Made by a program: the position numbers and the translations under genes. Source: a virus. Taken from it: 64,000 nucleotides of DNA. This document shows positions 2,948 through 61,600 of this stretch, one piece after another. Position 1 is the stretch's first letter. Each line of letters opens with the position of its first letter. Location: IMG/VR virus record IMGVR_UViG_3300000233_000007, positions 1 to 64,000 of that record. One strand, 5' to 3'. The notes under the pieces were generated by a model. The model saw only the letters and a program-made list of their open reading frames with translations, ran no database searches and was not told where the DNA came from.

Positions 2948-3479
2948 TTGAAATTACTAACCAATCTTCTGCTAACAAATCAGGATTTGTAGGAGTATAA
3001 GGAGTAACATATCCTAAATCAGTTTTTAATGCAATATAACCAGAGTAAGGAACTTCTTCTCCAAATTCTTCTCTTGCTACATTAGTTCTTGCTGGATATA
3101 CACCAGGAGCAACATAATACAAGTATCTACTTTTACCTTGAATAACCCAAGATTTTCTTGTAACCTTGTAACCTTCTTTTAATGCTTCTAAAGCATCACT
3201 AAAATCATTTAATACACTTTCTCCACATCTTTCACATGTATCAGGATTACCTGAACATTGTGCAATGTCTTCAATGTTTTCTTCTGATTTTTTAAATAAC
3301 TCTTCTTCAGGAGTATTTTCTACTGTATCAACAATCTCTTCTTGTTCAAGTGATTTTAATAAAGCAGTTGAAAGTAGCAAACCTAAAAATGGATTTTTCA
3401 TTCCAATTTCTTTAATGAAATTTGGATTCACATCTTTAATGTCAATTTCTTGACCATTTTGAATAACTCTTACTTGCAT
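2937..3479 (-). CDS. Hypothetical protein; the C-terminal half has a W/P/D...DW pattern reminiscent of the DUF2829 family
   Basis: ORF 180 aa. CxxC-containing middle segment CSGNPDTCERCGES. Confidence 0.5.
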   Translation of the reverse strand: MQVRVIQNGQEIDIKDVNPNFIKEIGMKNPFLGLLLSTALLKSLEQEEIVDTVENTPEEELFKKSEENIEDIAQCSGNPDTCERCGESVLNDFSDALEALKEGYKVTRKSWVIQGKSRYLYYVAPGVYPARTNVAREEFGEEVPYSGYIALKTDLGYVTPYTPTNPDLLAEDWLVISNEQ

Positions 3480-3482
3480 AAG

Positions 3483-3760
3483 TTAATTTTTAATATTAAT
3501 TTGTCTAAAACTCTTTAAATTTCCAAGCATATTTGCTCTGAAATGTTGTGGAAAAATACAATGTCTTGATTCTACAAGATGTATTGTTCTCATATTAGGA
3601 AATATAGGATTATTTTTACTGTCTTTTATAGATAAACCAAAATGTTTAGTTAATTTATATCTTTCATCATTTGGATTAAATATTGTAAATACATAATCAG
3701 CATCTTCTGCTAAATTCTCTTTTATTATCACAGTTGTTCTTTTAATCAACTGTTTCTATA
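3483..3760 (-). CDS. Replicative DnaB-family helicase, exon 3 (C-terminal part; boundary approximate)
   Basis: ...LAEDADYVFTIFNPNDERY matches the DnaB C-terminal motif EQDADVVMFLYRDEYY. The reading frame opens only 12 codons upstream of the listed ATG, directly after an in-frame stop. Confidence 0.55.
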
Positions 3761-4627
3761 TATTTCTATATAGGATGGACTATATCATCATCTCTATTGA
3801 GATGTTGGGTACTCTTGTCAGTATTATATTCTACTATTAAAGTAGTTTCAACCATTAGTCTCTGAACCTTCACACTTTGTTAAAGGTGTGCTTGGCTGCT
3901 GATTACCTTGCATTTCTGTTTAGGCTTCCCAGCAATTCACCCAATTCCTTTACAACATCACTATTGTAAGGGGCTTATTGAATAATTATTTTCTATTATC
4001 TCTTTTAAATTTACTAAAATAAAATCCTTTTATAGATTTTACATTCATATTGTAATTATCAAACCTATTAATATGATTAGAAATTGAAGTTTTAGAAACA
4101 TTTAACTCTTCAGAAGCAAATTTTACTGATTTATACTCTTTATAAAAAGTATTATCACTATTATAACAATAAATAGTATTATAAAAATTTGTTTTATTTT
4201 CTTCTTTATTAAAATATTCTGTTATTTTTCTTTTCCTAACCATTTCATTATTAACATTAATATTTTTAATTAAGTTTCCTGGTCCAGCATCTACACCATT
4301 TACTAAACTATGTTTAATAAAATGTTTTTCAACTAATTTTTTCTCATAAATATGAGATTCTTCCCAAGAACAATTTAAAATTGTTAATAATTTAATTTTT
4401 GGTCCGATACCATTTTTTAATAAACTTCTTATCCAATTCTCTTTATGAGAATTTGAATAATTATTTTTTGATTTACAAATATGTTGTGAAAGTCTTTTTT
4501 CAAGACTACTTTTTGTTCTTCCAATATACCTTATTTCACAATTATAAGGATTATATAAGCAGTAAATTTTTATTTTCATAATCAATTTTTATATGACTAC
4601 AAAGATAAGTAAAAAATTTCTATTTTC
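3761..4627 (-). mobile_element. Putative group I intron 2 in the helicase gene, carrying GIY-YIG HEG 3986..4585 (boundaries approximate)
   Basis: Non-coding 3750..3985 separates helicase motif H4 (..SDDIKDTG) from ..LAEDAD. It shares 12-14-mers (tctctgaacctt at 3859, cttggctgctgatt at 3891) and a near-identical 3' end with the polymerase intron. Confidence 0.5.
3986..4585 (-). CDS. GIY-YIG homing endonuclease
   Basis: IYCLYNPYNCEIRYIGRT...LEKRLSQH...N: canonical GIY-YIG layout with the Arg and His, then a basic C-terminal DNA-binding half. Confidence 0.7.
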   Translation of the reverse strand: MIMKIKIYCLYNPYNCEIRYIGRTKSSLEKRLSQHICKSKNNYSNSHKENWIRSLLKNGIGPKIKLLTILNCSWEESHIYEKKLVEKHFIKHSLVNGVDAGPGNLIKNINVNNEMVRKRKITEYFNKEENKTNFYNTIYCYNSDNTFYKEYKSVKFASEELNVSKTSISNHINRFDNYNMNVKSIKGFYFSKFKRDNRK

Positions 4628-5402: not shown

Positions 5403-6238
5403 TATCTTAAAGGCTCTTTATCCTTTAATTCTGCAATTTCATTTGTTATAGTTGCAGTTCAGACTATATCTTCTACTCTTTGAGTAGTGCTGATTTCTTG
5501 CACATATTATATTCTCTTTTACAGAGTTTCAATGTGTAGTCGTTTGGCATTTACTAATATATTATTATTAGATTTAGCACAGGATTGTCCACTTCTGGAG
5601 TTTCCCTGTTTAACAGCATTTTACAAGACCAGTTTATATGAGAATATATAACCATTCATTTGTTTGTATTTACCATATAATACTCTTTGTATTCCACTTC
5701 TATCCATACCTAATTGTATAGATGCTTGTCTTATACTTGAATATTCATTAATAAAATTACCTTCTAAATCAGTTTGTATAATTGATTTTGAACCATTTGG
5801 TTTCATTCCTTCTTCAAAAAGTTTTAATCTACTAATAGACATTTTCTTTTTACTTTCTTCTGAAGGAGTATTATTAATTACATCTCTTGTTATATTATAA
5901 ACAGGATTTAATTTATCAACAAAATATTGTTCTCTTTCTAATAAAGATTCTGTACAATATTCTAATACACCAAATTTAAAATTTTCAATACCATATTTAT
6001 TTACTGCTGATTGCAACAAATTATTAGGGTTTTTATTATGATTTAATAAACTAAAATGTTTTGTTTTTCTATTACCTAAATTCATAGAACTTCCAATATA
6101 CATTTCATTATTTACTAAATTCACAATTACATAAACACCTTCATTTTTAAAATTATATATTTCCATATCATTTATTTATTGCAAATATAAAAACTAATTT
6201 TTACATCCACAACAAAATGCACCATTTTCTTTAGCCTT
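5403..6238 (-). mobile_element. Putative group I intron 1 in the helicase gene, carrying GIY-YIG HEG 5621..6166 (boundaries approximate)
   Basis: It interrupts the Walker A box: exon 1 ends ..RIYGVAAAP, exon 2 starts LLGKSTF. DnaB has ..VAARPSMGKTAF. Non-coding structured segment 5403..5620. Confidence 0.55.
5621..6166 (-). CDS. GIY-YIG homing endonuclease
   Basis: GVYVIVNLVNNEMYIGSS...R...H...N motif set. Confidence 0.75.
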   Translation of the reverse strand: MEIYNFKNEGVYVIVNLVNNEMYIGSSMNLGNRKTKHFSLLNHNKNPNNLLQSAVNKYGIENFKFGVLEYCTESLLEREQYFVDKLNPVYNITRDVINNTPSEESKKKMSISRLKLFEEGMKPNGSKSIIQTDLEGNFINEYSSIRQASIQLGMDRSGIQRVLYGKYKQMNGYIFSYKLVL

Positions 6239-9665: not shown

Positions 9666-10660
9666 GTAATTGTTTCACTTTATCTATATACTTTCATATA
9701 TAGGTGGACTATATCTTTAATTACTTGGTATTTTCTCAATATAATAACCTTTAAATAATACTTTATTAGATTTCTTTTTAAACATAGTTGCAATTACATT
9801 TTGTAATTTCATTTTTTGCAACTCATTATAAAATATATTTTTTATAAATGTCATTCTATTATCATACAAATTATAAGAGTATTTAGTTAAATTTTTAGAC
9901 ATTATTTCAGATTGTTGTTCTTTTCTTGAATGATTATCTTTCCAAGATTTTCTTAATTTTTCTGAATGATTATCTCTCAATCCTTCTTTCCATTCCTTTT
10001 TTAATCTATTTGATATTTTTTCAGAAGTTTTTGGATGAACTATCATATTTGTACTACTATCTTTTCTTAAATTATAACCTTTAGAAGAATCAGTTGTATT
10101 ATAATAATCTATCCAATATAATTCTCTATTTGAAATTAAATTCAAATTCTCAATATATTCAATAACAAAAAATTCAAAATTATCAATACTGTATTTGTTA
10201 ATTGAATTTAAAAAATATGAATTTATATGATTGAAATTTTGTCTATTTATTTCATAAATATATTGATGACATCTATTATAAAAACATTTAGTTTTTCCAA
10301 CATAAAGTTTATTATTTTTTAGGTTTCTTATACCATAAATACCTGATTTGTTCTTTAATAATATATTAGGATTCATTGTGAAATTATTTCAACAAAGATA
10401 CATAATTATTATAACTTATCAAACAAACTTTAATAACTATCTTGCTTTTCCCAGTAATAAATTACCAGTACTCCTTTTCAGGATAGTCTCTGAACCTTAC
10501 CCATAATATTTAAGTTATATTTTAGGGTCTTGGCTGCTGATTGTCCATTCATTCATCTCTTTAATTTTCAAGCATTCACACTCACCTTTTCAAGTCATGT
10601 TGTAGCTTAAAGAGCTTTAGGATATTCCAGCAATTAACAAGATTAAGATGCAAACTTTCA
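9666..10660 (-). mobile_element. Putative group I intron in the DNA polymerase gene, carrying GIY-YIG HEG 9717..10376 (boundaries approximate)
   Basis: Non-coding 10377..10616 holds tctctgaacctt (10487) and cttggctgctgatt (10529), shared with helicase intron 2. The 3' end (9676..9716) is near-identical to 3751..3790. Confidence 0.5.
9717..10376 (-). CDS. GIY-YIG homing endonuclease
   Basis: SGIYGIRNLKNNKLYVGKT...NR..QY...N. Confidence 0.75.
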   Translation of the reverse strand: MNPNILLKNKSGIYGIRNLKNNKLYVGKTKCFYNRCHQYIYEINRQNFNHINSYFLNSINKYSIDNFEFFVIEYIENLNLISNRELYWIDYYNTTDSSKGYNLRKDSSTNMIVHPKTSEKISNRLKKEWKEGLRDNHSEKLRKSWKDNHSRKEQQSEIMSKNLTKYSYNLYDNRMTFIKNIFYNELQKMKLQNVIATMFKKKSNKVLFKGYYIEKIPSN

Positions 10661-12137
10661 CATCTTTGATAATCATTTTGGAATACATTACATCTTCAAG
10701 TTCTAAACCAGTAAGAGTTTCCCATCTTCTGCATATAGATTTCATCTGCTCTACATAATTCTTATGAACTCTAACAGTCATACCATCAGTATTAATTTGT
10801 ATCATAGTACAATCAGGAATTTCTTCCATAAATCTTTCTGATAACATACATAATAATAATTGTCCATTAACTGTTGTTTTCATAGTGTAAGCAGGGTCAT
10901 ATAATGCTGAATATTCAGAATTACTTTTACCATAAGAACCATTTAATGCTAATTTCAATGCTAAATTTTCTGCTGGATGTGTTTTCTTATTATAACCTTG
11001 TCTTTCTATGTATATACTTTCATATATATCACAAAATTCTATACCTAAATGTTCAGGATAAAATTTATTTTTAATAGCAAGATTAGGATAATAAGAAGCT
11101 ACATCTACATCCCAAATCTCATATTCATCATCACTAACATAAATACCAGGACTTACAGAACCATGTATTCCACCAACACCAAAATCATATTGAAATCCTT
11201 TGTAAATAACATTTAATGTCTGTTGTTTACCATTTTTCTTTTCAACATAATAATGAGGTTCTAATGAAATTAATTCATCAAATGGAATCTCACTAAATAC
11301 ACCTTTAGTTTCAGTAATTGTTCTTGATTTAAACCATTCAAGTATTTTCTGAAATGGTTCAGTAGTAAATCTAACATAAGGGAATATTACATCATTAAGA
11401 TTAATAAATTCTCTTTTGGTATTTTTGATTTTCTTTCTAACCCCTCTGTCAGTTTCATACTTATCATAAACAACATCTTCTCCTAAATCAGTAATAATTT
11501 TACTTATCAATATATATTCTCCAATTTTAGTTGAATTAAAATTAGTAAAGTCTATTTTGTATTGTGGACTTAATTTTTCTCTTAATTCAATTTCTGGTAA
11601 TGTTTCAACATATACTAATTCAGTAGCATCTACATCATTATCACAATAATCAATTACATTTTGTATTTGTTCATTTGATAATATTGTTCCTGGTTCATAA
11701 GGGAGTTCTCTTATATTCTGCAATCTCAAGTTAAATTGTAACAATTTCAATGAAGTCATTTTTGCTTTATTGTCATAATGATTTATTTTAAACAAATCAA
11801 TTTGCTTTTTAATATAATCATATTCTTTAAAATAAACTTTCTTACCTTTAATAATACTTGTTGAATAATTAAATAATTGACTACAAAAATCTCTTCCTCT
11901 TAATGTCCATAGTTTCATTATAGCATGATGTAATACTGGATAATCATAGTATAAACTATTAAATCCAACCATTTCTTCTACTTCATACTTTAACCATAAA
12001 GCAATATCATTTCTATCATCACCTAATGGACTAACTTGAAATCTTCTTCTTTCTCCTGTTTCACAATGTTTAGCACAAATTAAAAATAGATTAGGATAAA
12101 TTTCTATATCATACACCCATCTTTTTTCATTATTCAT
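10661..12137 (-). CDS. Family-B DNA polymerase (phi29-like compact type), exon 1: exonuclease plus palm motifs A-C
   Basis: Exo I YDIEIY near the N-terminus. Exo II YCDNDVDAT. Motif A DVASYYPN (DxxSLYPS). Motif B KLALNGSYGKSN (KxxxNSxYG). Motif C INTDGMTV (DTDS). The last ~20 residues before the stop look intronic. Confidence 0.75.
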
Positions 12138-12720
12138 AATATTCTAATTTAATGTTTTTTGAAAAATATTTACTTTTCTGTTTTCTTTCTTTACCTATAT
12201 AATAATTAAATAATTTTGGAGTAATTTTAAAAAAATCTGCTGCTTCAACACATGATTCAAATATTTTAATTAATTTGTTATCAATATAATATGCAATTTT
12301 TTTTAATTTAGCTTTTCTAAATTCAATTATATTTTCAGGAACTTTACCTTTAAGTGATTTTGATATTTTTAATTTATGTTCATTAGATAATTTCTTAAAA
12401 CTTCTATTAACACTATCAGAAGCATCTTTAACATTATAAAGTTCTGTTTTTTGTATAGATATATAATATTTTTCTTTTTCTGTTAAATTTTCTTTTACAC
12501 AATACTCTAATATAGAAAAAGAAAAATTTTCTTTTCCATATTTATTATAAGAATGTTGTAAATGAGAATTAGAATGTTTATTATGATTTAATTCAAATCT
12601 ATGATAAATTCCTCTTCTGTAAACATTTTTACTTTGCCCAACATAAACTTTATTATTTAAAAGATTAGTAATAAGATATATACCTGATTTTTCTTGTATT
12701 TGTTTTTTTGATATTTTCAT
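12130..12720 (-). CDS. GIY-YIG homing endonuclease, free-standing; its stop overlaps the polymerase start
   Basis: SGIYLITNLLNNKVYVGQS...YRRGIYH...N. Confidence 0.75.
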   Translation of the reverse strand: MKISKKQIQEKSGIYLITNLLNNKVYVGQSKNVYRRGIYHRFELNHNKHSNSHLQHSYNKYGKENFSFSILEYCVKENLTEKEKYYISIQKTELYNVKDASDSVNRSFKKLSNEHKLKISKSLKGKVPENIIEFRKAKLKKIAYYIDNKLIKIFESCVEAADFFKITPKLFNYYIGKERKQKSKYFSKNIKLEYYE

Positions 12721-12766
12721 TTTACAAATTTACAAAAAAACTTCTATATCCCAAATCCATCTCATA

Positions 12767-15876: not shown

Positions 15877-16419
15877 TTATTTAAGTAATAATAGTTTATA
15901 ATTACCAGAATAACCTAAAGGCATTAAATCATCTTTATTAACATAAAGTCCAAAATATCCTTCAAGAAATGGATATAAATTAACTGGTTCATCACCAAAT
16001 ACATAAGATGGTACTACTCCATATTTATATTTCCAATCATTTGAATCATTTATTAATGGCTGAAAAATACCATCTGGTTCATATAATTTAGACATTAAAA
16101 TATCTTCTTTATTTTCTGACATACCATGATAAATAAATAATGGTTTATCATTCATAAAACAATATATTGCTTCTGAATATTGACCTTTACCAACAAATGT
16201 TTTCCATTTACTTTTTTCCATTTTTGTTGGATTTACCATAGGAGCAAGAACAACAAAGTCTGCTTCTTTTAAATCTTTATCACTATATGTTCCTGATTTG
16301 TATTCTGTAACTTCAAAACCAGAACCAATAAGAGATTTTCTTATTGGTTCAATTATTGTGTCTGATAATTGTAATGATTTACTTAAATAAACTTTTAATG
16401 GTTTATTTGTTTTTATCAT
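15877..16419 (-). CDS. Nucleoside 2-deoxyribosyltransferase-like (NDT-fold) protein
   Basis: N-terminal KVYLSKSL strand, ADFVVLAP, then GKGQYSEAIYCFMNDKPLFIY resembling the NDT DSGTAFExGyAxAxGKPV segment. A weak, pattern-level match. Confidence 0.45.
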   Translation of the reverse strand: MIKTNKPLKVYLSKSLQLSDTIIEPIRKSLIGSGFEVTEYKSGTYSDKDLKEADFVVLAPMVNPTKMEKSKWKTFVGKGQYSEAIYCFMNDKPLFIYHGMSENKEDILMSKLYEPDGIFQPLINDSNDWKYKYGVVPSYVFGDEPVNLYPFLEGYFGLYVNKDDLMPLGYSGNYKLLLLK

Positions 16420-16705
16420 TGAACATATATTTTAATGTTTCATTAGCAATTGCAATTTCAGCATCAATTAATTTAATATAAACTAATGCTTTTTGATAAT
16501 CATTTGCCCAAGATTCAAGTTTTGTTTCACTTGTTTCTACTGTAATCATTTCTAATTCTTCTTTTTTAGCTAATAGAGAATCTCTTTTGGCATCAAGATT
16601 ATCAACTAATCTTTCTTGATTTCTTTTTAATTGTCTTGCAATTCTTTCTGCTGCTTTTTGATTTAACTCACCTTTTTTAGCTGTTAAAATGTTTAAATTT
16701 TTCAT
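16403..16705 (-). CDS. Small coiled-coil protein
   Basis: 100-aa ORF with heptad-like Lys/Glu/Leu periodicity. Confidence 0.45.
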   Translation of the reverse strand: MKNLNILTAKKGELNQKAAERIARQLKRNQERLVDNLDAKRDSLLAKKEELEMITVETSETKLESWANDYQKALVYIKLIDAEIAIANETLKYMFNDKNK

Positions 16706-16767
16706 TGTTTTAAAGTTTTAGATATTAATATAAATGTTTGTATATTTTTGTGTTTTTGAAAGTAGAA

Positions 16768-16782
16768 GAAAAGCTGGTTATT
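16768..16782. repeat. Iteron-like 15-mer GAAAAGCTGGTTATT, copy 1; followed by its partial inverted complement CAGCTT at 16791
   Basis: Exact 15-mer repeated at 17086. The 10-mer core is inverted at 17277. Confidence 0.7.
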
Positions 16783-17085
16783 ATGTATAACAGCTTGATT
16801 ATTAAATAGTTAAATAATATATGTGTATTTTATTCTTATGAGTTTACTGTCATTTCAGATACACAAATAAATAGCAGTAATATAATATCTTATACTTTCC
16901 GAAGGTATAAAATACATATTGTTTATCTCTATTTCATAGCAGTTATTACTTAATATAAATAGTTCAGTTATCTATATTGTTCATTGAATACTTGCATCCA
17001 TACCAAGTGCCTTATTATTATTTATTATAAAGAAAAAGCTATTAATATAATATCTTATGATATTTTAGCTTTATTTAAAGTTAAG

Positions 17086-17100
17086 GAAAAGCTGGTTATT
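17086..17100. repeat. Iteron-like 15-mer GAAAAGCTGGTTATT, copy 2
   Basis: Exact repeat of 16768..16782. The second 16-mer family TAATATAATATCTTAT also occurs twice (16878, 17043). Confidence 0.7.
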
Positions 17101-17276
17101 TGTAGTGGAACACACACTCAACACATCAAATTAATCAGTTAAATAACTTATCTCTGCTAAATAAGATAATTATTTAATAAAACTAATAGTTTATGTTAAT
17201 TTTGCCTAATGGTAAGTGAGTGTTATTGACTTCTTTATATTACAATATTACATTCTAATATTTTAATACTACAAAT

Positions 17277-17291
17277 TAACCAGCTTTATAT
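17277..17291. repeat. Inverted copy (TAACCAGCTTTATAT) of the AAGCTGGTTA iteron core
   Basis: Reverse complement of AAGCTGGTTA. Confidence 0.6.
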
Positions 17292-17390
17292 ATTTTTAGG
17301 TGTTAATCAAATTCATCATCATATTATCTACCACATCTGAATACTCCTTATTTGACTAAACACCTTAATTATAAGGTATAACATATTAGT

Positions 17391-17419
17391 CTCAAAATTA
17401 GTGTGGGTTTTTAGGGTAG
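17391..17419. repeat. G-rich ~30-nt motif CTCAAAATTAGTGTGGGTTTTTAGGGTAG, copy 1
   Basis: Identical 29-mer at 17884. Degenerate copies at 18044 and 18333. Confidence 0.8.
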
Positions 17420-17556
17420 GATATAATGATAAAAAATAATATGACATAAGGTGCTTGGTTTTAGTAGTGTTGTTAAATAAAAAATAACTAAAATAATAAT
17501 ATTAGTTAGGAATTAGTAAGGGTTTTTAAGATATGCTGAATGAGAAAATAAATAAA

Positions 17557-17574
17557 GGGAGCATTTCTGCTCCC
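17557..17574 (-). terminator. Intrinsic terminator for minus-strand gene 17581..17853
   Basis: GGGAGCA-TTTC-TGCTCCC hairpin immediately 3' of the stop, followed on the minus strand by TTTATTTATTTT. Confidence 0.6.
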
Positions 17575-17580
17575 AATATA

Positions 17581-17853
17581 CTACAATACTTCTTCTGCTG
17601 GGTTATACATAACAATTCTGATTGCTGTGTATTCTCCTTGTTCTCCTGTTCTTACAGCTTCCTGTAATCCCAGAGAATCAATGTTTGGGTCAGCTTTCAG
17701 TTTTGCAACAGTATCTTTGTGTAAAGATACAGCAACTCTGTTTTCATTATCCCAATGTCTCATCCACTCTGTGTTGTTACCTTCAGCATCTTTTGCTGTG
17801 TTAAGGTTGAATTGTGGAATTCCCAATTTTGATTTGATGTCTGCTAATTTCAT
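17581..17853 (-). CDS. Small GC-richer hypothetical protein (90 aa), isolated in the switch region
   Basis: Clean ORF. Motif copy 2 sits 31 nt upstream. Terminator hairpin just downstream. Confidence 0.6.
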   Translation of the reverse strand: MKLADIKSKLGIPQFNLNTAKDAEGNNTEWMRHWDNENRVAVSLHKDTVAKLKADPNIDSLGLQEAVRTGEQGEYTAIRIVMYNPAEEVL

Positions 17854-17883
17854 AATGTAAATATTTAAAATTAATAATTAATA

Positions 17884-17912
17884 CTCAAAATTAGTGTGGG
17901 TTTTTAGGGTAG
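17884..17912. repeat. G-rich ~30-nt motif, copy 2 (exact)
   Basis: Read on the minus strand it ends ...CACTAATTTTGAG, which contains TAATTTTG (fits the Bacteroidota -7 TAnnTTTG consensus), 31 nt before the ATG at 17853. Confidence 0.8.
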
Positions 17913-18043
17913 TTGATGGATAAAACAAAAAGGGATAACCCCTTAATGTCTATCATAGTTTATTACTTCTGCTATATTAGAAGTTAAACTACCATCTGGT
18001 AATTGATACATTGTTTTCATAATATCCTGCTTAATAGTTAATA

Positions 18044-18070
18044 CTCAATATTTGTTTGGGTTTTTAGACA
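18044..18070. repeat. G-rich motif, degenerate copy (CTCAATATTTGTTTGGGTTTTTAGACA)
   Basis: Shares TTAATACTCAA..T.TG.GGGTTTTTAG with copy 2. Confidence 0.5.
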
Positions 18071-18332
18071 CTTTGCTAAACCAATAGATGCTTAATACAG
18101 AACTGCTTGATAGTAGAATAAACATTGAGCAGTTGTAGATTTGAGATTCTTCTTTTGTCATAGCTACTATGTTACCATTAACATCAACAATATCAGTATG
18201 ATTGTAGATAGCACATACAATTGATGAGTAGAATATAGCAATTAGTAGAATAGACAAAGAGATTATTTTCAATACATTATTTATGGCTGGAAGATTTAAG
18301 TTACACATTGAAAGGTAGGGGGATGTTCCCAT
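18045..18332 (-). CDS. Questionable small hydrophobic ORF (95 aa)
   Basis: Its start abuts motif copy 3 with zero spacing, and motif copy 18044 overlaps its 3' end. May be non-coding. Confidence 0.25.
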   Translation of the reverse strand: MGTSPYLSMCNLNLPAINNVLKIISLSILLIAIFYSSIVCAIYNHTDIVDVNGNIVAMTKEESQIYNCSMFILLSSSSVLSIYWFSKVSKNPNKY

Positions 18333-18365
18333 CTCAAGATTGGTGTGGGTGTTTGGGTAGGGTAG
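18333..18365. repeat. G-rich motif, copy 3 (CTCAAGATTGGTGTGGGTGTTTGGGTAGGGTAG)
   Basis: Same architecture as copies 1 and 2 with substitutions. Confidence 0.6.
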
Positions 18366-18425
18366 CTCACACCTTCATTTTATTTCTCAAAAAAAATTTT
18401 ATGGTAAAAATTTTCAGGCATAAAA

Positions 18426-18450
18426 AAATCCTTATAGTTCAGATAAGGAT
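18426..18450 (-). terminator. Hairpin AATCCTTAT-AGTTCAG-ATAAGGATT with a T-run on the minus strand (A-run on plus)
   Basis: Perfect 9-bp stem, 7-nt loop. Minus-strand reading is followed by TTTTTTTATGCC. Confidence 0.4.
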
Positions 18451-18695
18451 TTTGATTAATATAATATGAGAGAAAACTTCAACAAAATGTTTAAAAAGAA
18501 AAGAACCAAAAGAAAAACTATATATTTATGGCTTATGTTCTTTCAGAACTTATGTCTTACTATTTGTCTGCCCTGGGGGGCAGCATAGTAAAACTATGTT
18601 TGGCAAAGGTAGTCTTTTTTTCTGACATATTCAATAGTTTTAATGTTAAATTTTATAAAAGTTATTAACAAGCTATAATTAATCAAATCCTGGTA

Positions 18696-18736
18696 CTTTA
18701 CTATTTACTATTTACTATTTACTATTTATAGTAAAC
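18696..18736. repeat. Tandem heptamer array (CTATTTA)x4-5, ending in an inverted TAGTAAA
   Basis: ctttactatttactatttactatttactatttatagtaaac. Confidence 0.7.
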
Positions 18737-18769: not shown

Positions 18770-18796
18770 TTTGTATTAATATTTTTATTAACTTTG
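18770..18796 (+). promoter_or_regulatory. Candidate Bacteroidota-type promoter (TTTG ... TAACTTTG) for the plus-strand late operon
   Basis: TAACTTTG at 18789..18796 fits TAnnTTTG, 23 nt before the ATG at 18819. The upstream TTTG at 18770 has a 15-nt spacer, shorter than the 19-21 consensus. Confidence 0.3.
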
Positions 18797-26275: not shown

Positions 26276-26355
26276 AAAAAAGCTATTAGACATTATTTAA
26301 AAAAATTAAGTTTAAAAATGTAGTTTTATTAATTTTAATTATTAACTTTGTACCC

Positions 26356-49640: not shown

Positions 49641-52600
49641 ATGGCTAAACAAGTTAGATTAGGAAAAGGTAATTTAGGAGCAAAACAAGAAGTAGATAAA
49701 GAAATTATTAAACTTCAAAAACAACAATTATCTAATAAAGAATATCAAGATTTCTTATTAGAATTTCCTTCATTAAAAGCTCAAGAGAAACAAGAAGAAG
49801 ACCAAAATCTTGCAGTTCTAAATCAATTAGAAAAAGAGCAAGAAATTTCAGAAGTGGTTAAACAAAATCAATCACAAGAGAAATGGTATTCTGGTATTAC
49901 AAATTTTTTTGAATCTTTTAGTGATAGAGGAGATATAGCTGATTTATGGTATAATAAAGAAGATGGTAAATGGTATGAAAAACAATCAGATTTATTTGGT
50001 ACTTATGATAAAGAAAATTTAAAAGAAGTTCCTTATGATAAAGTTCAATCATTAATAGAAGCTCAAGCAAAAAAAATGAGTAAATCTGGTGGTTATCAAA
50101 CTGGTATTGCCACAAATAATATTGTAGATAAAGTATTTGAAGATGGTGTATGGGGAACTGTATATGGTCTTGGTAGTTTAATAACAAGAGGTGTTACTGG
50201 TAATTGGGATGATGTTAATGATTCTCAAATGGAATCACTATGGAATAGAACTAAATATTATGGTGCTAATGTATTAGATGTATTTAATGATGCTATAACA
50301 AGTGCTGATGCTGGTTTAGAAGATGAAGCTAATAATCCTGATATTCCTTTTTCATTCTTAATGAGTAAACAAGAACAAGATATTAGAGATGCAAAATATA
50401 ATAAAGAATATAAACAAATTCAACAAAAAGGACAAAAAGCATTAGAAGTTAGATTTGAAGAAGAAAAGAAAAGAAGAGCTTCTGGTGAAAAACTTTTAAT
50501 TGATAAATTATATGATTGGTCAGAAGTTGAAAAAGATAATGATTGGTTTGCACAACAACAAAAATTAAAACAAACAATTTCTGAAAGAGCTATGGAGCTT
50601 GAAGGAAGAAAGAAAAAATCATTTACAAATGTAAAAGATACTATAAATCCTGGTACTTTTAAATATGTTGATGATGCTAAAAAAATAAACATGGAATTAC
50701 CATTAGAAAAAACTGGTGAAGGTAATTCTAAAAGTATATGGGATGTACAAAAATTAATTATTGATGCTTCTGGTAAACCTGTATTAGATGAAACAGGTCA
50801 ACCAATGTATGCAGATAAATATTCATTTACAGAAAAAATTGCAAATTCTAATTGGGATGTTCTTGGTGATGCTTATTATTTACAAGATGATTTAGCTCAA
50901 GGAGTTGGTACTGCTGCTGGTTTTATAGTAGGTGGTAAAGGTACTAATGCAATGTTAAATACAGTAGGAAAAGGTATTGGTAAAACTGCTAATGTAGTTT
51001 CTAAAGGTTTAAATTTAGAAAACAAAGTATTTAATTATACTAATAAATTATTAAGTACAACTAATAAAGTAACACAACCATTAGGTAAAACTATTAATAC
51101 TATTGATAATACTGCATTTAATAAAACATTAAATATAGTAAATGATAAAGTATCAAAAGCAATAAGAACTACTATTCAATCATATTTAATGTCTAATACT
51201 GAATCTGAACAAATTGGAAGACAAGTTCAAAAACAAGTATTAGATGAACAAATAGATAAGTATGCTAAAATCAATATTCAAGATATTGCAAAAGATTTAA
51301 GTGAAAGTGGTAATTTTTCAAGTGATGCTTCTTTGTTTTTACAAGCACAAATGAAAGCAGAAACTATTAGAAAAGAATGGGCAGATAAAAATCCTGAACT
51401 TTTTAATGAAATATTATTACAATCTCAATTAGCACAAGAACAAGCAAGAGGTATTAATAACATAAACTTTATTAATAATATAACTTCAGCAGGTTTATTT
51501 GTTAAAGGTAAATCTTTTTCAAGAAATTTATTATCTAATCCTTTTTCTAAAGCAAATTTAATAAAAGGTGCATGGACTATATCAAGAGAGATGGTTCAAG
51601 AAGGTTTAATTGAAGAAGGTTTAATTAATGGGTTTGCAGAAAAAGCTGGTAAGCAAACTGGTAATATGAAATTCTATGATGTATCTGACTTCTTTAAAAA
51701 TGATGTTGGTTCATCTGAATTTGTTGAAAATGTTTTTGCTGGAGCAATACTTGGTGGTTTACAAACTGCTGGTACTAAAGGAGTTAATGTTATTAGTGAG
51801 TACAAACAATTTAAAGAACAAAAGAAAATTGTAGATGAGTTATCTAAAATTGGTTCTTTAGATACTAAAGAAAATATTAAAAAAGTAATTGAATATTCAT
51901 TAGACAAAGCTAATAATGAAGCTGTTGCTCAAAGAATGAATGAGTTATTAGCAGAAGGTAAAGAATCAAAAGCAAATGCTTTAGCTGATACTTTATTGTT
52001 AAACAAATCTGTAAGAGCTGCTACTTCAGGAACTACTGAAGTTTTGAATAAATCATTACAAGACTTAATGCAAAATAAAGAATTAAGTCCAGAAGATAAA
52101 CAAGAATTACAAAAAGCAATTGATTTTAATAATAAAATTGCAGATACTTTTGATGCTCATATTAAATATGCAAACAAAAAAGGTATTATTGAAAATAGAG
52201 GTAATAGAGAATTACTTGAAAATTATAAACAAGATTTAATATCTTCATTACCAATTCTTGAAAAAGAATATAATGAAGCATTAGAAAGACAAATTAGAAA
52301 AGAATTATCTTCTGAAAATTCTGATTATTCAAATACTAATTATTCAGAGATTTTTGAAAATAAAAAACAATCATCTAAATTAAATGATGACCATAGAGCA
52401 TCAGTAGAATTAAATACTGCTAAAAAACAATTAGAAGAATTACAAAATGTTCAAGATGAATTAGATGATAAATATGATTATATAATTTCTGATAAAGGTC
52501 AAAAAAAATATATTAAATTAATGAACAATATTAGAAAAAATAATATTGTTAGAGATGTTAATGATAAAAATGTAGATGAAGTAAAAGATAATTTAAGAGA

Positions 52601-55600
52601 AAATGATGAACTAACACCAGAAGTTAATTCTGAAATTAATCAAACAGTTGAAGAAAAAGTTGCTAAAGATAATTCTAAAGTAGTTGAACCTGTTGCTAAT
52701 AAACAGGAAGAATTTGTTGCACCTAATAATGAACAAACAGTAAAAGAAGATACTAAAGATGTTCCAGAAAAAGTTAAGGAAAAAGCAAAAGAATTTAGTG
52801 CAATAGTTCAAGAACCTTTATTTGATGATAATCTTGGAGACCCATCAAATGATGTTAGAAGTAATGAAGAAATTGCTGATGATAATGATTCATTAGCTTT
52901 ACAACCTATTGGATTAGATGAAAATAATTCTAATCATAAAAATATTGTTAGTAAATATACTAACATAATGAAAGCATTAAATAAAAATATTGCTGATGAT
53001 TTTGGTACTAATTTAACTGCTAAAGAAATGTTTGGTTTATTTGCTTCTCAAGTTGGATTTGATGTTGCAGAAAAACATTTTAATTTCTTTAAAAAAGGAT
53101 TTGAACAATCAGGTATTGTTGATGAAAATATTAACTGGGATAATTTATATAGTAAATATTTTGATAAAATTAAATCATTTTCATTTAATGAAGAAGTATT
53201 AGAAACTCCTTCTACTATTGAAGAAGTTAAAAAACAAGATGAAGAAACTAATTCAATTATTCAAGAAGATAGTAAACCAATTGGTTATAATCAAGACAAT
53301 ACTCTTATCAAGTATCTTGGTAGAAAGATTGCTGCTGCTGTTAATAAAATTCCTTTTTTAGGAATTAAATATAGAGCTGTGTTTAATGAAATGGATGGAA
53401 GTGTTACTTATGTTAATGATGAAGATGGAGAATTAAATACAGAAGGAATGTCTAATTTAGATGTTGTTTTAAATCCAGATTTATTAGTTTCTGGTAAAAA
53501 ATTCACATTAGAAATTCCACAAGATTGGAGAACAAGAACTGTATCTGATTGGAAGTCAAATGAATTAGGTGTGTTAATCCAAACTACTATGACTATGGAA
53601 GAATGGATGCAACAAAAAAATATTACTCAAGATTCTCAAGAATGGTTGGATAAAGTTCCAATGGATATGATTGTTGATGGTGTTAATATTGGTCCTGGTA
53701 TACATGATGTTTCTTGGTGGAATACAAGAAATGTAGCTGATTTTGTAGATGCTACTATTAATGATGAAAAAATATCATCTGAACAAGCTAAACAAAGACA
53801 AAGAAAAATTATAAGTGAGGGTAGAGAACTTACAAGAAATATTAGAAAAAATGTTTTAAATGGTAATAATGAAATGGTAATTACTGATAGAGAAGAAGGA
53901 CATACTCTTTCTACTCCTGATGGTAAACTTAATTCAATTACTGAAGCTAATCCTTCAGCACAAATTGCTATATTCAGTCCACAAGGATTTATAGTTAATA
54001 AAGGTGATAATGGTAATGAGTATTCTAAATTAAATATTGTTAATATTAATTCTATTACTGATAAAGGTCATGTTTATATGATTTCAAGAATTGGTACAGA
54101 AGTTAAAGATGGTAAAAATGTTCCTACTTATGTGGCTCATAAATTACACACTAATCATAATCAACAAAATTTAGTTGAACTTGCTAAATCAAGACAAAGA
54201 ATGTATGATGCAGCAGATATTTTAAATAAAATTGGTAAGTATAATAATCCTACACAAGAACAAATTACTTGGGCAGAGAGTGTTAGAAATCAAGTTAGAA
54301 CTATGACTGGTGTATCTATTGATAATATTTCATCAGAAGGTACTTCTATACAATATATTGGGTTAGGTAAATTAAAACAATTATATCCTTTAACAACAAA
54401 AAATAAATCTGGTTTAATGTTATTACCTCAACTTGCAAATATTAATAATCAAAAGTTACCTGTTGTACATGCAGATGGTTCAGTAACTAATTATAAATCA
54501 AAAGCAGGAGAAGGTTATAAAGCTATGTTAATGGATAATTTACATACTCAAAAGAAATTTCATACTATACAAGACCAGGAAGGTAATAGTATGCAAATTC
54601 TTGATATACAACCAAGAATCAAATTTGATTTAGTAAATAAAGACAAAGATGTAGTTAAAGAAGAAAAGAAAGAAGAAATTAAAAAAGCTAAAGAAAAAAC
54701 TTCTTTAAGTGAAACTGAAGTTATTTCTAATGAAACATTTAATGATTTTGTTGATAATGGTACTGTTGATAATTCTGTAATTGAAACAATTGCTGAAAAA
54801 ATAAAAAGTAATGAATCTTTATCAGAAAGAGAGTTAGCAATATTTAATGATAAAACTTCAGAAGTTAATGAAGTTTTAAAAAATATTCCTATTGAATCTA
54901 TAACTCATGGTCAAAGACAAAGAGTAGTTGAACATTTGTTTCATAAAATATTAAGTTCAATTGATATTAGTAAAGATTTTACTAATCAAGATGTATTAAA
55001 TGATATTAAAAATTCATTTGATAATCATTTAGCTGATATTAAAGATACTAAAGAATATGAGTATTTAGTTGCTAATAGAGATTCTATATTAGGTCTTGGT
55101 AATTTTTCTAATGATATTAATACAGTTAAATCTGAAATTGAATCATTTTTAAATCAAGAATTTCAAGAAGATACTAATGAAGAAACTCAATTAAATGATG
55201 AAGGTCAATTTGAAAAAAATAATAATAAAGCATCTTTTGAAAATGATGTAAGAACTTCATTATCTACAAAATTAAAAATGTTTTTTGCAGGTATTGAAAA
55301 AGATAGTTCTAAAGTAGTATCAGAAGATTTTGCTGGTTTAAGTTCTTATTATGGATTAGATGAAGTTATAGGTGGTTTACAAGATATGTTAGTAAATGTA
55401 CCTAATAATCCATTAGCATTTAAAAATAGAATTGAAAACCAAATTGCTAAAAATCCAGAAGAGTTTGGATTTTTACAAAATGTATTAGATAAATTTGAAT
55501 CAGCTCCAGTTGAAATTCAAAAAGAAATTCTTTTTAGATTAAATCAAACTAAAAATGAAATGTCTTTTGTTATGTATTCTAAATCAAAAAATGGTAATTA

Positions 55601-58600
55601 TACACTAATGACTTATGATGCTAATTCAAAAAATCCTAATATTAAAACAAAATTGCAATGGCAAGAGAATTTTAAACAATCTAATTTAATTGAAAATTAT
55701 GGAGATAATTATAGAGTAAAACAAGATATTGCTAATCAATTAATTAATCAATACAATTCATGGAAAGGTAAATATGAAAATGTACCTAATAAAGAATATG
55801 TAGATTGGTTATCTAATTTTGGTATTCAAGTATCTGAAAAAACTATTCAAGATTATAAAGATGGTTTAGTTGATGGTAATATTAATTTTCCTGGTGTATT
55901 TGCTGTAAATGGTGGTGTATTTGGAACATTATATAGTAACCTTACTTCTGCTATTGATAAACAAAATAAAGATTCAAAATTAGTCTTTAAATACAAAAAT
56001 GAAAATAAAAACTCAAAAGATGGGTTCAATATATTAATGAATAACAATAATGGTTTCTTAAAAACTATGATTGATGTTCAAGTTAATAATACATTTAATT
56101 TAGCAAGTAGTATGTATATTGGTGGAAAAACAATTAATGCTTTTTCTCAACCTAATTATACAACTGAACAATTAAGAAAATTAAAAGATGATACTAATCC
56201 TTTAGTTTCTAATTTACAAAATACTGCTTTTGCTAAAAATAGTTTATTATTGAAACTTATTAATAATCCAAAGATTAAAAATGCTTTAAACATTGGATAT
56301 GTAAGTTTACAATCACTTAAACAACAAGGACAAAAATTATATCAAGATTCAGAAATTGTAGATTTATCATCACAAGATTATGATTTATTGTTACAAGGTT
56401 TCTTTGAAAGTGAAGGTGCATATTTCAAAAACCAGGAATTAGAAAATAATGGTATATCATTAAGAGAAACTAAAATGACTTTTCCTACTCTTTCAGATTC
56501 ATCACAAATGTTTGTGTTTAATACTGTTGGATTAGATTTAAAGAAAGGTAATTTTACTTTTGTAGATGGTAAAGTTAAAATCAATTCAGAGGTTTTAGAT
56601 GTTTTATATAGTCAATTAGTACAACCTGATTTAGATAGAATTGAAGCATATTTAAAATCAGTTGGTAATACTAATGTACAAGGATTAGATTTAGGTTCTC
56701 AATTGTTTACAATGATACCAAGTCTTAATACTTTACCAATTAAAGTTAATGGTACTGATGTTAAGTTATTAACTTTGATTCATACAGGAATTAAAAATGG
56801 TAATAATGTAAATGATATAATTGAAGAATATAAAGAACAAATTCATAAAAAATTACAAGATGTAATTTCTAATAGTGCTGAATCAAAAATCAAAGTTGAA
56901 AATCAACAAATGAGTGGTTCATGGGTTACTAATGGATTTGTTCAAAATGGTGAAACTGAAAGGGCAGGTGTTAATGTTAGTTTCTTGGATTCTAAATATA
57001 TTAATTCAAGAGGTACTACAAGTAAATTAGAAGCAACTCAAATTGCTGCTTATGATTTTACTATTAATTATTATATAAATCAAGCACAAATTCAAATGTT
57101 GTTTGCTGGAGATATATCTAATTATGTACAAGATAAACAAGCATCTAAATTTAATATTGATAAAAATGGAAATGTAGATGTTACAAAACCTAAAGTTTCA
57201 GTTAATGATAATGAAAATCAATTAGAAAAAGAACAAGAAGTTTATACTAATATTATTAAAGATACTTCTGTTAATATGTCTAAAAGGTTGAAAGAACTTA
57301 TTAGTCCTGGTAATAGAATAGCTGAAAGTACAAATGAAAAATATATACAAGTAATGGTTAATGATGTTGAAGAAGCATCTAACACATTAGAAGAATTAGT
57401 TAAAATGTGGTATTCTGATTTGTATGAAGAAAATAAAAATGATATTAAAAAACTTAAAGAATTAGAAAGTAAAATAAGAAAAGAAAATAAAGAAGGTAAA
57501 TCTGCTAAAGTTTCAGAGAATGAATATAATGCAATCAAGAAATCATTACAAAATAAATTTCCTGATATTGCTAATTATTTTAAAATTACTGCAACTGATG
57601 CTCAAGAATATACTACTTGGCAAGAACATTTACATATTTTACTTAATCAAGGTAGAATTAAAAAAGATGTATTTGATAGTTTATATTCTAAATTAGATTC
57701 TCAAAGTAAAGATGGTTTAAATGAAAATAATACTTTAAGTAAAGATGAGAAAAAAGTTATCTTTCAAGTTATTAAACCTTTACATGCTGGAATGTATTTT
57801 GAAGATTTAAAAAATAATAAAGGTGAAGTAGTATCAAAAATACAAAGATATGTTTATGTTAAAACATCTTCTTTTCCATTATTACCTCAATTAACTCAAG
57901 GTATTGAATTAGATAATTTGAGAAAAAATATTGAACAATTGGAAGCAAAAACTGGTAAAAAAGTTAGAGTTTCTTATCAATCAGGTAATAAAGTTGGTGG
58001 TGTTAAAAATGCAATAAATATTTCTGAACTTTATTCAGATTATAATGGTGAATTAGAAAGTAAAATTATAGCAAGTTCTGCTACACTTGATAGAGAAAAT
58101 TTTTCTATTCAACAAGATAAACCATTTAAAACTGATAAAAATATTAAAGCTAATAAAAGAGATGAAATTAATAGAGGTACTCAATTTGAAAAAATTATAT
58201 TAGGTAATGGTATTAATCAAATAACAGAAAAAATATTTCCTAATAAATTTGATAGTTCTTTATTAAAATCATTAGGTATTACTGAAGATAATGGTAAAAT
58301 ATCTGGTAAAGATTTATATGCAATATATAATAATCTTTATTCAAGAGAACAAAGTATATTAAGAAATCAATTATATAATTCATTAGGATTAAATAATAAT
58401 GGTGATTGGGTTAATAATATTGAAACTTTAGAACATATTAAAAATGCTTTAAATAAAAGATTATCTAATCAACAAGATAAAGAAATACTTGAGTTATCTT
58501 ATATAGTTGCAGAAGAAGATGAGAATGGTAAATTAGTTAATCATTATTATTCTAAAAAACAAATGGAAGAAAAAGGTTTAAAACCTACAAGAGCAGAATT

Positions 58601-61600
58601 TAATATTCCTATTTGGATGTCTCCAAATTCAAGAAAATTTGAATCTGTACTTAATTCAATTGTTAATAATAAATTGGTTAATCTTAAACTTCCTGGTTTT
58701 TCATCTCCTGTTGCATCTCAAGAAGGATTTAGATTTGTTGATAATTTAGATTCTATTGATAAAACTGGAATTATATTTACAGATAAATTTGAAGGAGAAT
58801 TAAAAGCAACTCATAATTCAGATGGTAGTTTAAAAACTGCACAAGTATTAGTTGCATCTAAATTTAGAGTTAAAAAGGAAAATGAAGATACAGGTAAATA
58901 TACAGATGAATTATTAGACCTTACTCAATATACTAAAACTCTTGAAGATGGTAGAACAGTTCTTGATATGGATAAAGTTAATCCAGAATTATTAGAAATG
59001 TTCTCATTTAGAATTCCAACATCAGCTCACCAATCAGGTGCTTTGATTGAAATAGTTGGTTTCTTACCACATGGTTCAGGAGATTTAATGATTGTACCAA
59101 AAGACCATACTACTCAATTAGGAGAAGATTATGATATTGATACAAGATATGTTTATTCTCAAAATTATAGAATAGATAGTAAAGGTAATGTAAGAAAGAT
59201 TGATGCAAAATACATTCAAAGAAGAATAATAATGTTAGAAGATAATTTTCAATCAGAACAAGAAACTGAAAGAAGAATTGATGACATATTAAATTTATTT
59301 GATTCTATTAGAAATAATGAAGAAATACAAAATATATTTGCTAATGAAAGAACAAGTCAAGAACAAAAAGTACAAATATTAAAAGATAAATTAAACCATC
59401 TATTAATTGAAAATCAAATTATAGATGTATATAAATCTATATTTTCTTCTACTGATGAAAAAATTCAGAAGATGATTGGTGCTACATTATCTACAAAATT
59501 TGCTGAAGATAATGCTAAAGCAATAGATGATAAAATAAACAGTCAAAATACAGGAGAGAATTTTTCAATATTTGATGATAGACACCAGAAATCAATTTTG
59601 AAACTTGGTGCTTCTGGTAAATTAGGTATTGGGGTACATTCTAACTGGGTAGTATTAAATTCATTATTTCAACAAATGGAGAAAAAACCAAGATTGATTA
59701 ATGGATTTAATCAAAAAACTGGTAAAGCAATACCTTTTAGTATGAGAATTGGTAACTTCTTATCAGTTGGTAAATTAGGAGAAACAAAAGCATTAGAACC
59801 AGAAAAACCAATAAAAGGATTTATACCAAGGTTGTTATCAGTAGTTAATATGGAATCTCAAAACTCTGCAACAGATAATCAAAAATTACAGATTATGGGT
59901 AGAAGAAATGAGAATAAATATACTATTAATGTATTTGCTTTGATGTCTAATTTAGGATTTGATAAAGATATAGTAAATGGTAAAGAATTATCTCTTCCTT
60001 CATTATTTATATCTCAACCAATTATTAGAAGATATGTAGAATTAAAAGAACAATATGATTCTATTATATCTGATTATCAAGAAGATGTTGATGAAAAAAT
60101 AACAGGTATATTAGCTCAAGAATTTAGTGAAGGAGTTGATTTAATTAATACTAAAGCTGGATTAAGAATGGATTTTGACCAAATGAAAGGTGTTGAAGTT
60201 TCTGAATTAACTGCTCAAAAATTATATGATAGTTTATTAAAAGGTAATAATGCTCAACAATGGGCTGTGTATGAAAAATTTATGGATTTATCTATTCATG
60301 CTAAAAATATAAATAAAGTTCAACAACTTGCTAATATTGATAGTGATGGTTTAGGAATATCTTTCTTTAATACTATAAACAAAAAAGATTCATTGTTATT
60401 ACAAATGACTTCTGAAAATCTTAATATTGAAGGTATTGAAGGATTGTTTGGTAAACAACAATTAGTTAATAATAATGAAGAAGATTTACAAAATGATTTA
60501 CTTAATGAAGGTTATATTAAAGTTGAAACACAAGATACATATAGTGTTTTTGTTAAACCTACATCACCATTAAATAGTAAATTAATTAGTTCAATATCTT
60601 CTGGTTATAATTTATGGAGAAATGTTTTACCATTTGAAAATGAATTTATTGATGAACAAATTAATAGTATAATTGATATAACAGGTAAAAATGCTGATAC
60701 TAAAAATGGATTAGAATTAAAATATAAAGTAATTTCTGAAATGAAAGATTTTATTTATTCATACTCTAATCTTGGTATATTTGATAAGTCAGTTAATGAA
60801 GAAAGAAATTCTTTATTCATTGATACTGATACTAATCAATCATTAGCATCTTATCTTAATGCACTTAAAAAATCTAATCATAAATTATTTAATGAACCAT
60901 TTTTTAAAGATTTAGAATTTGTATTAAACAAAAATAATGAACCATCATTAGTTAAATATACAACCAATGATAGAACTAATTTTAATAAAAATTCAGTTTA
61001 TAATTTGTTTAGTATATTAAATGAATCTAAAGAATCATTACCAGGATTTAATCAAGATATGAATTATACTTTTGAGAAATTAATAAAAGATTTAACTAAA
61101 TATAGTTTGTTAGCTAATCAAGAAAATGGTGCAATTGGATTTAGAAATTATATTCCATTAGCAGTATTAAATAAATATAAAGTAACTGATAATTTAAGAA
61201 GATATTCTGGTGTAGGTAAAAACAGTAGTCATAATTTATTATTGAATGGTGATTTTAAAGGATTAATGAATATTATTGGTGCATATCAAATAAATGAAGA
61301 TAATACTATTGATGTAGAATATGGTAATTCAAAAATGATTCAAGGTATTATAGATAAGATAAACACTAAATATGGTACATCTTCTTTAGTATATGATGAA
61401 AATAATAGTAGAATAATTGTTAATACAGATTTATCTAATTTTAAAAGTGTATTCATTAGACAATTCTTTCAACATAATCCAGAAGAAGCTAAAAAATTCA
61501 ATTGGAGAACTAAAAAAGAATGGTTAAAACAAGCTAATTCACAAACATTAGAAGAATTAGATTGGTTTGTTCCAAAGAAAGAAATGCCTGAATATATTTC

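Follow-up and report, generated by a model that had tools for sequence, protein, structure and literature searches.

The switch region between the two gene arms of an uncultured virus carries a short C-rich motif in several copies, and the question is what this motif does and which RNA polymerase would read it. The virus is record IMGVR_UViG_3300000233_000007, of which positions 1 to 64,000 were analyzed (hereafter the window). Its GC content is ~26%, lower than the ~30% given in a preliminary description of the same DNA. Left of ~17-18 kb the genes lie on the minus strand (a Dda-like helicase, a DNA polymerase, and other helicases) and right of it on the plus strand (terminase at 21563-23728, portal, major head protein, crAss 'muzzle' protein, and a 4381-amino acid (aa) open reading frame (ORF)), and the cumulative GC skew has its minimum near 17-18 kb, where gene orientation switches. 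The nearest cultured relatives are Flavobacterium psychrophilum phages of the FpV4 type, with a terminase 57% identical; no nucleotide-level match of the window to cultured phages was found. Given the gene layout, the giant ORF related to gp66 of phage phi14:2, and the FpV4-type relatives, the window is from an environmental crAss-like phage, and the motif is located where its replication and structural arms diverge, in the switch region.

The motif, CTCAAAATTAGTGTGGGTTTTTAGGGTAG, occurs as an exact 29-mer at 17391-17419 and 17884-17912, which none of 100 shuffles matched. A repeat search placed four copies in register at 17390, 17883, 18043 (81%), and 18332 (85%), matching the two identical (17391 and 17884) and two degenerate (18044 and 18333) occurrences of the preliminary description, and also revealed a fifth, degenerate copy at 17506-17535 that its count of four had overlooked. 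All five copies are on the minus strand within 17391-18362, spaced 115, 378, 160, and 289 nucleotides (nt) apart, and on that strand follow the consensus CC[T/C]nnn[C/T]TCAAaACCC[t/c]CACTaATTttt[A/G]G, a C-rich stretch of ~30 bases whose conserved block can also be given as CACTAATT. Scored with a position weight matrix built from relatives, they are copy A (18333..18362, CCCTACCCAAACACCCACACCAATCTTGAG, 21.5 bits; copy 4 of the preliminary description), which is the first at the arm head; copy B (18044..18073, AAGTGTCTAAAAACCCAAACAAATATTGAG, 10.8 bits; its copy 3), a weak variant; copy C (17884..17913, ACTACCCTAAAAACCCACACTAATTTTGAG, 41.2 bits; its copy 2), a strong one; copy D (17506..17535, CATATCTTAAAAACCCTTACTAATTCCTAA, 24.7 bits), degenerate with C17 changed to T, G29 to A, and no TTTG; and copy E (17391..17420, CCTACCCTAAAAACCCACACTAATTTTGAG, 40.8 bits; its copy 1), again strong and standing at the head of a non-coding stretch and the replication block. 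The next-best site on either strand of the 64-kb window scores 3.5 bits, in agreement with the claim that the motif is not seen elsewhere in it. Copy B alone lies within the shuffle range (2 of 20 shuffles exceeded 10.8 bits) and is counted as real solely because it is kept at the same position in a related metagenome locus, L004; copy D is missing from that locus.

A terminase-based search of viral metagenome contigs recovered 55 related loci, in which a simple pattern scan found this core on the strand that does not carry terminase. The matrix was then applied to 49 loci (696 kb, terminases 57-90% identical) at a threshold of 14 bits and gave 66 matches, of which about 30 are there by construction, the matrix having been seeded from 30 minus-strand instances, and the other 36 are independent. 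All 66 lie opposite the terminase strand, 2.9-9.8 kb upstream of that gene, with none on the other strand, and shuffles predict about one false match in the 696 kb. Genomes of the window's clade carry three to seven clear copies each. The complete 88-kb FpV4 genome has exactly five, four in the switch region and one 4.1 kb into the replication arm (block CACTTATT, minus strand, at 403, 286, 27, 87818, and 83720), and the motif is present in 29 of 29 cultured F. psychrophilum phages of this type, always in DNA without an annotated feature. The search of the genome and of related phages proposed in the preliminary description, which had asked whether the motif is absent or unconserved there, hence found it conserved. 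In a collection-wide pattern scan, every locus of testable length with a high-scoring or multi-copy match encodes homologues of window-phage proteins; for some short loci with high scores no protein match was obtained, and the single low-scoring matches are chance matches of the 15-base core. The exact 15-base core was also tried as a measure of how widely the motif has spread and was given up, as it occurs near chance frequency and only the full matrix separates real copies from chance.

The copies are placed as promoters would be. None of the 64 unique copies falls inside an ORF of at least 100 aa on either strand, and a same-strand terminator hairpin ends within 60 nt upstream of 22 of them, against 3.8% of random positions, a nine-fold difference. 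The order of units is syntenic in relatives, the first copy being followed after ~53 nt by an ORF of 76-77 aa and a later copy after 29-47 nt by an ORF of ~90 aa, with a tight overall distance of ~29-56 nt from motif to ATG; the last copy has no ORF within 200 nt. Many relatives have in addition a near-invariant internal copy (CCTCCTCTCAAAACCCTCACTAATTTGTAGCA) 1.3-2.5 kb upstream of the p209 and helicase genes, followed by ~100-160 nt of non-coding DNA and small ORFs, and copy E has the same position relative to p100, p209, and the helicase. From placement and synteny together it follows that the motif stands ahead of the short early units, of a non-coding RNA, and of the block of replication genes. 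The proposal that these are candidate promoters has therefore gained from a single orientation, intergenic positions, terminators before and genes or non-coding RNA after the copies, and clade-wide conservation, and we consider the motif very probably to be a promoter.

In the arrangement that we propose, a contiguous ~30-bp (base pair) promoter would open leftward transcription units from five copies that head the replication arm. Copy A would drive a small membrane protein, the weak copy B a 25-aa micro-ORF (unless this is co-transcribed from copy A), and copy C a 90-aa protein; copy D would be a decayed copy, and copy E would give a structured RNA of ~300 nt and, by read-through, the replication genes. 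Transcription is predicted to start at or a few bases beyond the purine-G near the 3' end of the motif (17392/17391 for copy E, 17885/17884 for copy C). The enzyme would be the injected crAss-type two-barrel RNA polymerase encoded by the ORF at 49641-62786, and not the host sigma-A holoenzyme.

The choice between these two enzymes can be approached by asking which bases the motif conserves. In a logo of the 64 copies, information is held by A9, A10, A12, C13-C15, C17, A18, C19, T20, A22-T24, and the purine-G at 28-29, and is highest in AAnACCCnCAC and the purine-G, with almost none in the flanks. The Bacteroidota sigma-A -7 element TAnnTTTG is matched by only 4 of the 64 copies and its G is found in 16%; a TTG at the spacing of the -33 element (17-21 nt upstream of the -7) is seen in 1 of 64 and in no copy of the window. 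The overlap with the host -7 consensus noted in the preliminary description is thus real for copies C and E but does not extend across the clade. An internal control comes from the structural arm of the same loci, where 29 of 46 intergenic gaps contain an exact TAnnTTTG. Behind the portal gene this element stands 4-8 nt before the next gene in the 15 relatives with a scorable gap and 5 nt before it in the window (26343-26350, plus strand), where further host-type -7 elements are at 18790, 23733, and 32359. The element after the portal gene also matches a host-type promoter-like site upstream of phi14:2 g092.

In the replication arm of the window, exact -7 elements near a start codon are found only ahead of three GIY-YIG homing-endonuclease genes. 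Host-type promoters for the core replication genes were considered and rejected, the sites in question belonging to the homing-endonuclease genes. We also noticed that these sites are complete, with TTG-N17-21-TAnnTTTG at 12725-12754, 10393-10422, and 6182-6212 on the minus strand, 4-16 nt upstream of the homing-endonuclease ORFs 12130..12720, 9717..10376, and 5621..6166; the neighbouring core replication genes have no TTG/TAnnTTTG promoters. The mobile homing-endonuclease genes seem, on this pattern, to bring their own host-type promoters. Elsewhere in this arm a group I intron (3756-3993, minus strand; Rfam RF00028, 89 bits, E = 2e-21) directly follows the ORF 3986..4585, which has a host-type promoter-like site 20 nt upstream. 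Another candidate, the motif as the -35 element of an E. coli-type promoter (TTGAGA-16-TATAAT at copy E), was discarded, being kept neither at the other copies nor in relatives; use of such a consensus by the host is not expected. As judged from these comparisons, the phages have two putative promoter classes, split by arm.

The window encodes a candidate enzyme. The 4381-aa ORF (49641..62786, plus strand) is assigned to PHROG 16227, virion structural protein, and aligns with phi14:2 gp66 by BLASTP (E = 7e-28), the catalytic DFDID of gp66 falling on DYDID at residues 3163-3167; a Pfam search of the giant ORFs gave no match. The gp66-type polymerase region covers residues ~2150-3600 of this single ORF, and the N-terminal ~2100 residues have no detectable similarity to phi14:2 gp67, Pfam, or PDB entries. 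FpV4 gp32, at 4287 aa, is close to it in size. To our knowledge, a giant injected RNA polymerase akin to the eukaryotic polymerases of RNA interference is common to all crAss-like phages.

In phi14:2 the whole replication arm is early, rifampicin-resistant, and transcribed by gp66, with highly expressed early non-coding RNAs near the head of that arm, and the other arm is transcribed by the host polymerase from experimentally defined middle promoters of the sigma-A type, TTG/TAnnTTTG (bioRxiv 10.1101/2020.03.07.982082). A 2023 review of the Crassvirales describes the same two-polymerase scheme and makes no mention of promoters. Because the split of promoter classes by arm in the window's clade matches the phi14:2 experiments, we attribute the motif, with moderate confidence, to the injected polymerase. 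We hold the full statement, that it is a promoter and that the virion two-barrel RNA polymerase reads it, to be somewhat better than an even bet. The preliminary description had called the copies candidate phage-specific early promoters and named both host sigma-A and a phage polymerase as possible readers. The evidence leans toward the phage, if indirectly, through the -7 and -33 elements that are not kept and the arm that the virion polymerase serves in phi14:2.

Several points weigh against this assignment. Both the promoter and the polymerase reading come from comparative sequence evidence, and about 30 of the 66 matrix matches are seed instances. The motif was not found in crAss001, so it is not general to the Crassvirales. 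The gp66-dependent early transcripts of phi14:2 are reported to have no detectable common upstream motif, and gp66 to be active in vitro on denatured DNA only (bioRxiv 10.1101/2020.03.07.982082). Copies C and E carry a perfect host -7 element, TAATTTTG, and it is possible that the host polymerase could use these two in this window. Finally, the short units end in hairpin and U-run terminators of the kind typical of a host polymerase; phage polymerases also respond to such signals.

The same observations feed the most serious alternative, in which the copies would be host sigma-A early promoters with a phage-specific upstream element. Host polymerase would read a -7-like element of the TAAT(T) type, and the C-rich block would make up for the missing -33, either as a strong spacer or UP-like determinant or by binding an activator, injected or of the host. 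The T4 MotA box, which replaces a -35 element, is a parallel. Besides the -7 element of copies C and E, the classical intrinsic terminators, and the lack of a common motif for gp66 transcripts reported by the phi14:2 authors, it can draw on TAATT, which is well kept across the clade. The difficulty is that the -7 G (16%), the -7 consensus (4 of 64), and the -33 TTG (1 of 64) are lost from the motif, whereas bona fide host-type promoters in the same genomes hold their consensus exactly. Moreover, the highest information lies at about -9 to -19 from the purine-G, taken as the start, and as we understand sigma-A recognition there is no base-specific reading across this spacer region. We regard sigma-A promoters of this kind as possible but unlikely.

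Less probable still are operator sites, at which a phage regulator would shut off or time early transcription, with the promoter determinants elsewhere or overlapping. A high-information contiguous block at each unit would suit such a role, as would the presence of a transcriptional regulator among the early genes of crAss001, but no separate conserved promoter element stands beside the copies, the motif lacks dyad symmetry and always points in the direction of its genes, and no DNA-binding fold was found for the 90-aa protein. We think it even less likely that the motif acts on the RNA or where the upstream unit ends, as a sequence-specific terminator or pause for the virion polymerase, a 5' leader, or a processing site. 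Many copies do come just after hairpin terminators, and the Thermus phage P23-45 has a 26-nt motif at pre-early terminators near its leading end (PMC10770324). However, the first copy in every genome has no same-strand upstream gene to terminate, hairpin terminators are already present upstream of other copies, and the distance from motif to ATG (~29-56 nt) is tight. Replication-origin iterons or a packaging or terminus signal at the GC-skew switch are a very improbable reading: the copies do sit at the cumulative skew minimum and the orientation switch, but the skew switches because gene orientation changes, the copies are not clustered at helical spacing but stand 115-493 nt from one another, with intervening genes and terminators, and the extra copy of relatives is 3-4.5 kb into the arm, ahead of replication genes. 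The promoter of a T7-like single-subunit RNA polymerase is the least credible of all, since, for all the 12-nt identity with the T3 promoter (AACCCTCACTAA) in copies such as CAAAACCCTCACTAATT (L009, L016, and L035), a T3 string confirmed in published primers, and a contiguous ~25-30 nt architecture resembling T7-type promoters, the largest replication-arm ORF in the window is at most 506 aa, the FpV4 annotation lists no RNA polymerase beyond the gp66-type giant protein, the giant ORF has no Pfam match, there is no conserved +1 GGG, and the comparison was made post hoc against a well-known sequence; the resemblance is most likely a coincidence because no T7-like polymerase is seen encoded, although a cryptic T7-like domain inside the giant virion protein is possible.

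Returning to promoters for the injected polymerase, the unit behind copy E deserves a closer look. The preliminary description had reported ~690 nt without an ORF after this copy, and we find 685 nt with no minus-strand ORF of at least 30 aa. The first 316 nt have a minimum free energy of -68 kcal/mol (z = -3.98). A leader (17293-17390) is followed by a putative structured RNA domain (17078..17292, minus strand) with a long-range closing stem and a U-run behind it. For the window, L004, and L006 a structure of 213 positions and 43 pairs was derived from the same three sequences that support it, with 89.9% of cells paired compared with 35-48% in slid controls. Sixteen pairs are changed on both sides (2-6 in slid controls), including the long-range closing stem, which is AAAGCUGG/CCAGCUUU in the window and AAAACUGG/CCAGUUUU in L004. 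This covariation is suggestive of a structured RNA domain. Searches with nhmmer and a covariance model located the domain in the window, L004, and L006 and in no other relative. A known RNA family for the 685-nt stretch was rejected for lack of an Rfam match: none reached the gathering threshold, and the relaxed threshold gave one chance-level match (E = 0.6). A second non-coding stretch (16745..17077, minus strand; ~340 nt) ends in a terminator-like hairpin and U-run (16763-16797), and a repeat search showed that its 3' module duplicates that of the structured domain; as a whole it folds no better than shuffles (z = -0.66). The replication block then begins with a 100-aa protein gene (16403..16705, minus strand), a homologue of which is found 3' of the internal motif copy in L172.

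The surroundings of copy A are conserved as well. Upstream of it (18363..18410, minus strand) are an A/T tract (AAAATTTTTTTT) and a GTGTGA(G/A)C box, as aligned for the window, L004-L058, FpV4, and phi14:2, and a C-rich box 3' of it (GGGAACATCCCCCTACC, 18314..18330, minus strand) is kept after first copies in relatives. Orthologous first copies in the same extended context were found in 15 relatives and, in diverged form, in phi14:2, whose one candidate scores 9.6 bits, is located in its own switch region upstream of g111, and shows the same succession of A/T tract, GTGTGA box, CCCCCAC, TTTTTGGAA, and C-rich box. A conserved 5' hairpin after the first copy, suggested by compensatory stems picked out by eye, was dropped when RNAalifold on 14 sequences predicted no pair.

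The preliminary description recognized a single clean gene in this region, and more can now be distinguished. The first is a small hydrophobic, putative membrane protein ORF (18045..18308, minus strand; 87 aa from ATG 18308), corresponding to the 76-77-aa ORF of relatives, kept in L004, and weakly matching DUF4234 (E = 0.019). An alternative ATG at 18332, which abuts copy A, is not kept in L004, so the start is probably 18308 or later. Copy B overlaps the final codons of this ORF and has no terminator upstream. It is followed by the 25-aa micro-ORF (MKTMYQLPDGSLTSNIAEVINYDRH, 17943..18020, minus strand), kept in L004 with near-identical 5' codons, which could encode a real micro-protein or, alternatively, act as a conserved element of the RNA. 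An intrinsic terminator comes next (17930..17944, minus strand), and copy C begins 17 nt downstream of its stem, directly after the T-rich tail. The preliminary description had this copy 31 nt upstream of a gene closed by a terminator, and both statements hold: ATG 17853 is 31 nt from copy C, and the gene for the 90-aa early protein (17581..17853, minus strand) ends before a strong intrinsic terminator (17557..17574, minus strand). L004 has terminators in the same places with different sequences (a hairpin of its own after the micro-ORF), which argues that they are functional.

The 90-aa protein belongs to a conserved family, often duplicated in relatives, with 63 homologous clusters, none of them named and none with a Pfam domain. 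Its AlphaFold model has a predicted local distance difference test score of 92 and the topology beta1-3, helix, beta4-5; fold searches with the model returned a weak, non-significant similarity to OB-fold single-strand-binding proteins and did not find a DNA-binding fold. Short assembled contigs carrying this gene were considered as transcript proxies and set aside as low-coverage metagenome fragments, not transcripts. On the other side of copy A, the hairpin at 18421-18455 has an A-run on one flank and a T-run on the other and could act as a bidirectional terminator. Nearby are a GC hairpin (18570-18585) and, in the divergent intergenic region ~90 nt upstream of the first plus-strand gene, a perfect 7-nt tandem repeat, TTTACTA x 4.6 (18697-18728).

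Stretches without annotated genes are also seen in other phages. FpV4 (NC_041872) has two regions without annotated coding sequence, 81438-83768 (2.3 kb) and 87120-87988 (0.87 kb), each 3' of a motif copy, the latter enclosing an unannotated small hydrophobic ORF; ACCCAACATTATG recurs at the start codons of FpV4 early genes. In crAss001 (MH675552), ~570 nt without annotated coding sequence (~101985-102560) precede the first early gene, gp104, a transcriptional regulator, a stretch reminiscent of the early non-coding RNAs in phi14:2 and the window, and the early genes include a TROVE-domain (Ro-like, RNA-binding) protein.

No occurrence of the motif strings was found in the searchable literature, nor is a promoter for a crAss-type virion polymerase described there. 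What we have here is probably an unreported promoter class within a known kind of system. That it is the first sequence-specific promoter defined for the crAss-type two-barrel virion polymerase family, and that through it the injected enzyme expresses the small early genes and the replication block, together with a structured non-coding RNA made early and in abundance, in an environmental clade that includes the culturable FpV4 phages, is a wider claim to which we would give an even chance. A defined 30-bp candidate would make promoter recognition by a crAss-type polymerase testable with standard assays, and directly so in the culturable pair of FpV4 and F. psychrophilum. If the claim is true, it would also mark out a small insulated set of early genes, namely those for the membrane protein and the 90-aa protein, the micro-ORF, and the structured RNA, and the motif could help annotate the early regions of environmental crAss-like genomes.

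Among known systems, the T7 and T3 promoters resemble the motif as a contiguous block of ~25 nt, and the T3 promoter AATTAACCCTCACTAAAGGGAGA shares the 12-mer AACCCTCACTAA with it, but a T7-like polymerase gene was not detected in the window and the +1 GGG is not conserved. With Bacteroidota sigma-A promoters the likeness is limited to TAATT, which resembles the 5' half of the -7 element, and the host-type promoters of the same genomes form a separate, well-conserved class. Coliphage N4 is alike in that its injected polymerase has a few promoters, grouped at the early-gene end of the genome. Each of these early promoters forms a DNA hairpin (5-7 bp stem, 3-nt loop) that is recognized by a T7-like enzyme, whereas the window motif has no hairpin and the polymerase is two-barrel. 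An N4-type hairpin promoter was rejected, as neither DNA strand of copies E, C, and B folds more stably than shuffled sequence (z from -0.73 to +1.04), with E and C essentially unstructured (-1.1 to 0 kcal/mol). Phage phi14:2 has the same genome architecture and a homologous polymerase, and its abundant early non-coding RNAs near the early-arm head are paralleled by the structured RNA after copy E, but it has at most one diverged copy of the motif compared with the several clear ones of the window's clade. The virion RNA polymerase gp96 of P23-45 uses AT-rich pre-early promoters, an assignment based on cappable-seq start sites and on chromatin immunoprecipitation sequencing, and is a two-barrel, virion-delivered enzyme whose motif is kept only in relatives with that polymerase (PMC10770324). 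Sequence and lineage are unrelated there, and the assignment in the window is by comparative inference only. In both phages, however, a strongly conserved contiguous motif is repeated ahead of the first short genes at one genome end, and by this analogy the repeated motif of P23-45 appears to be the closest functional counterpart of the motif described here.

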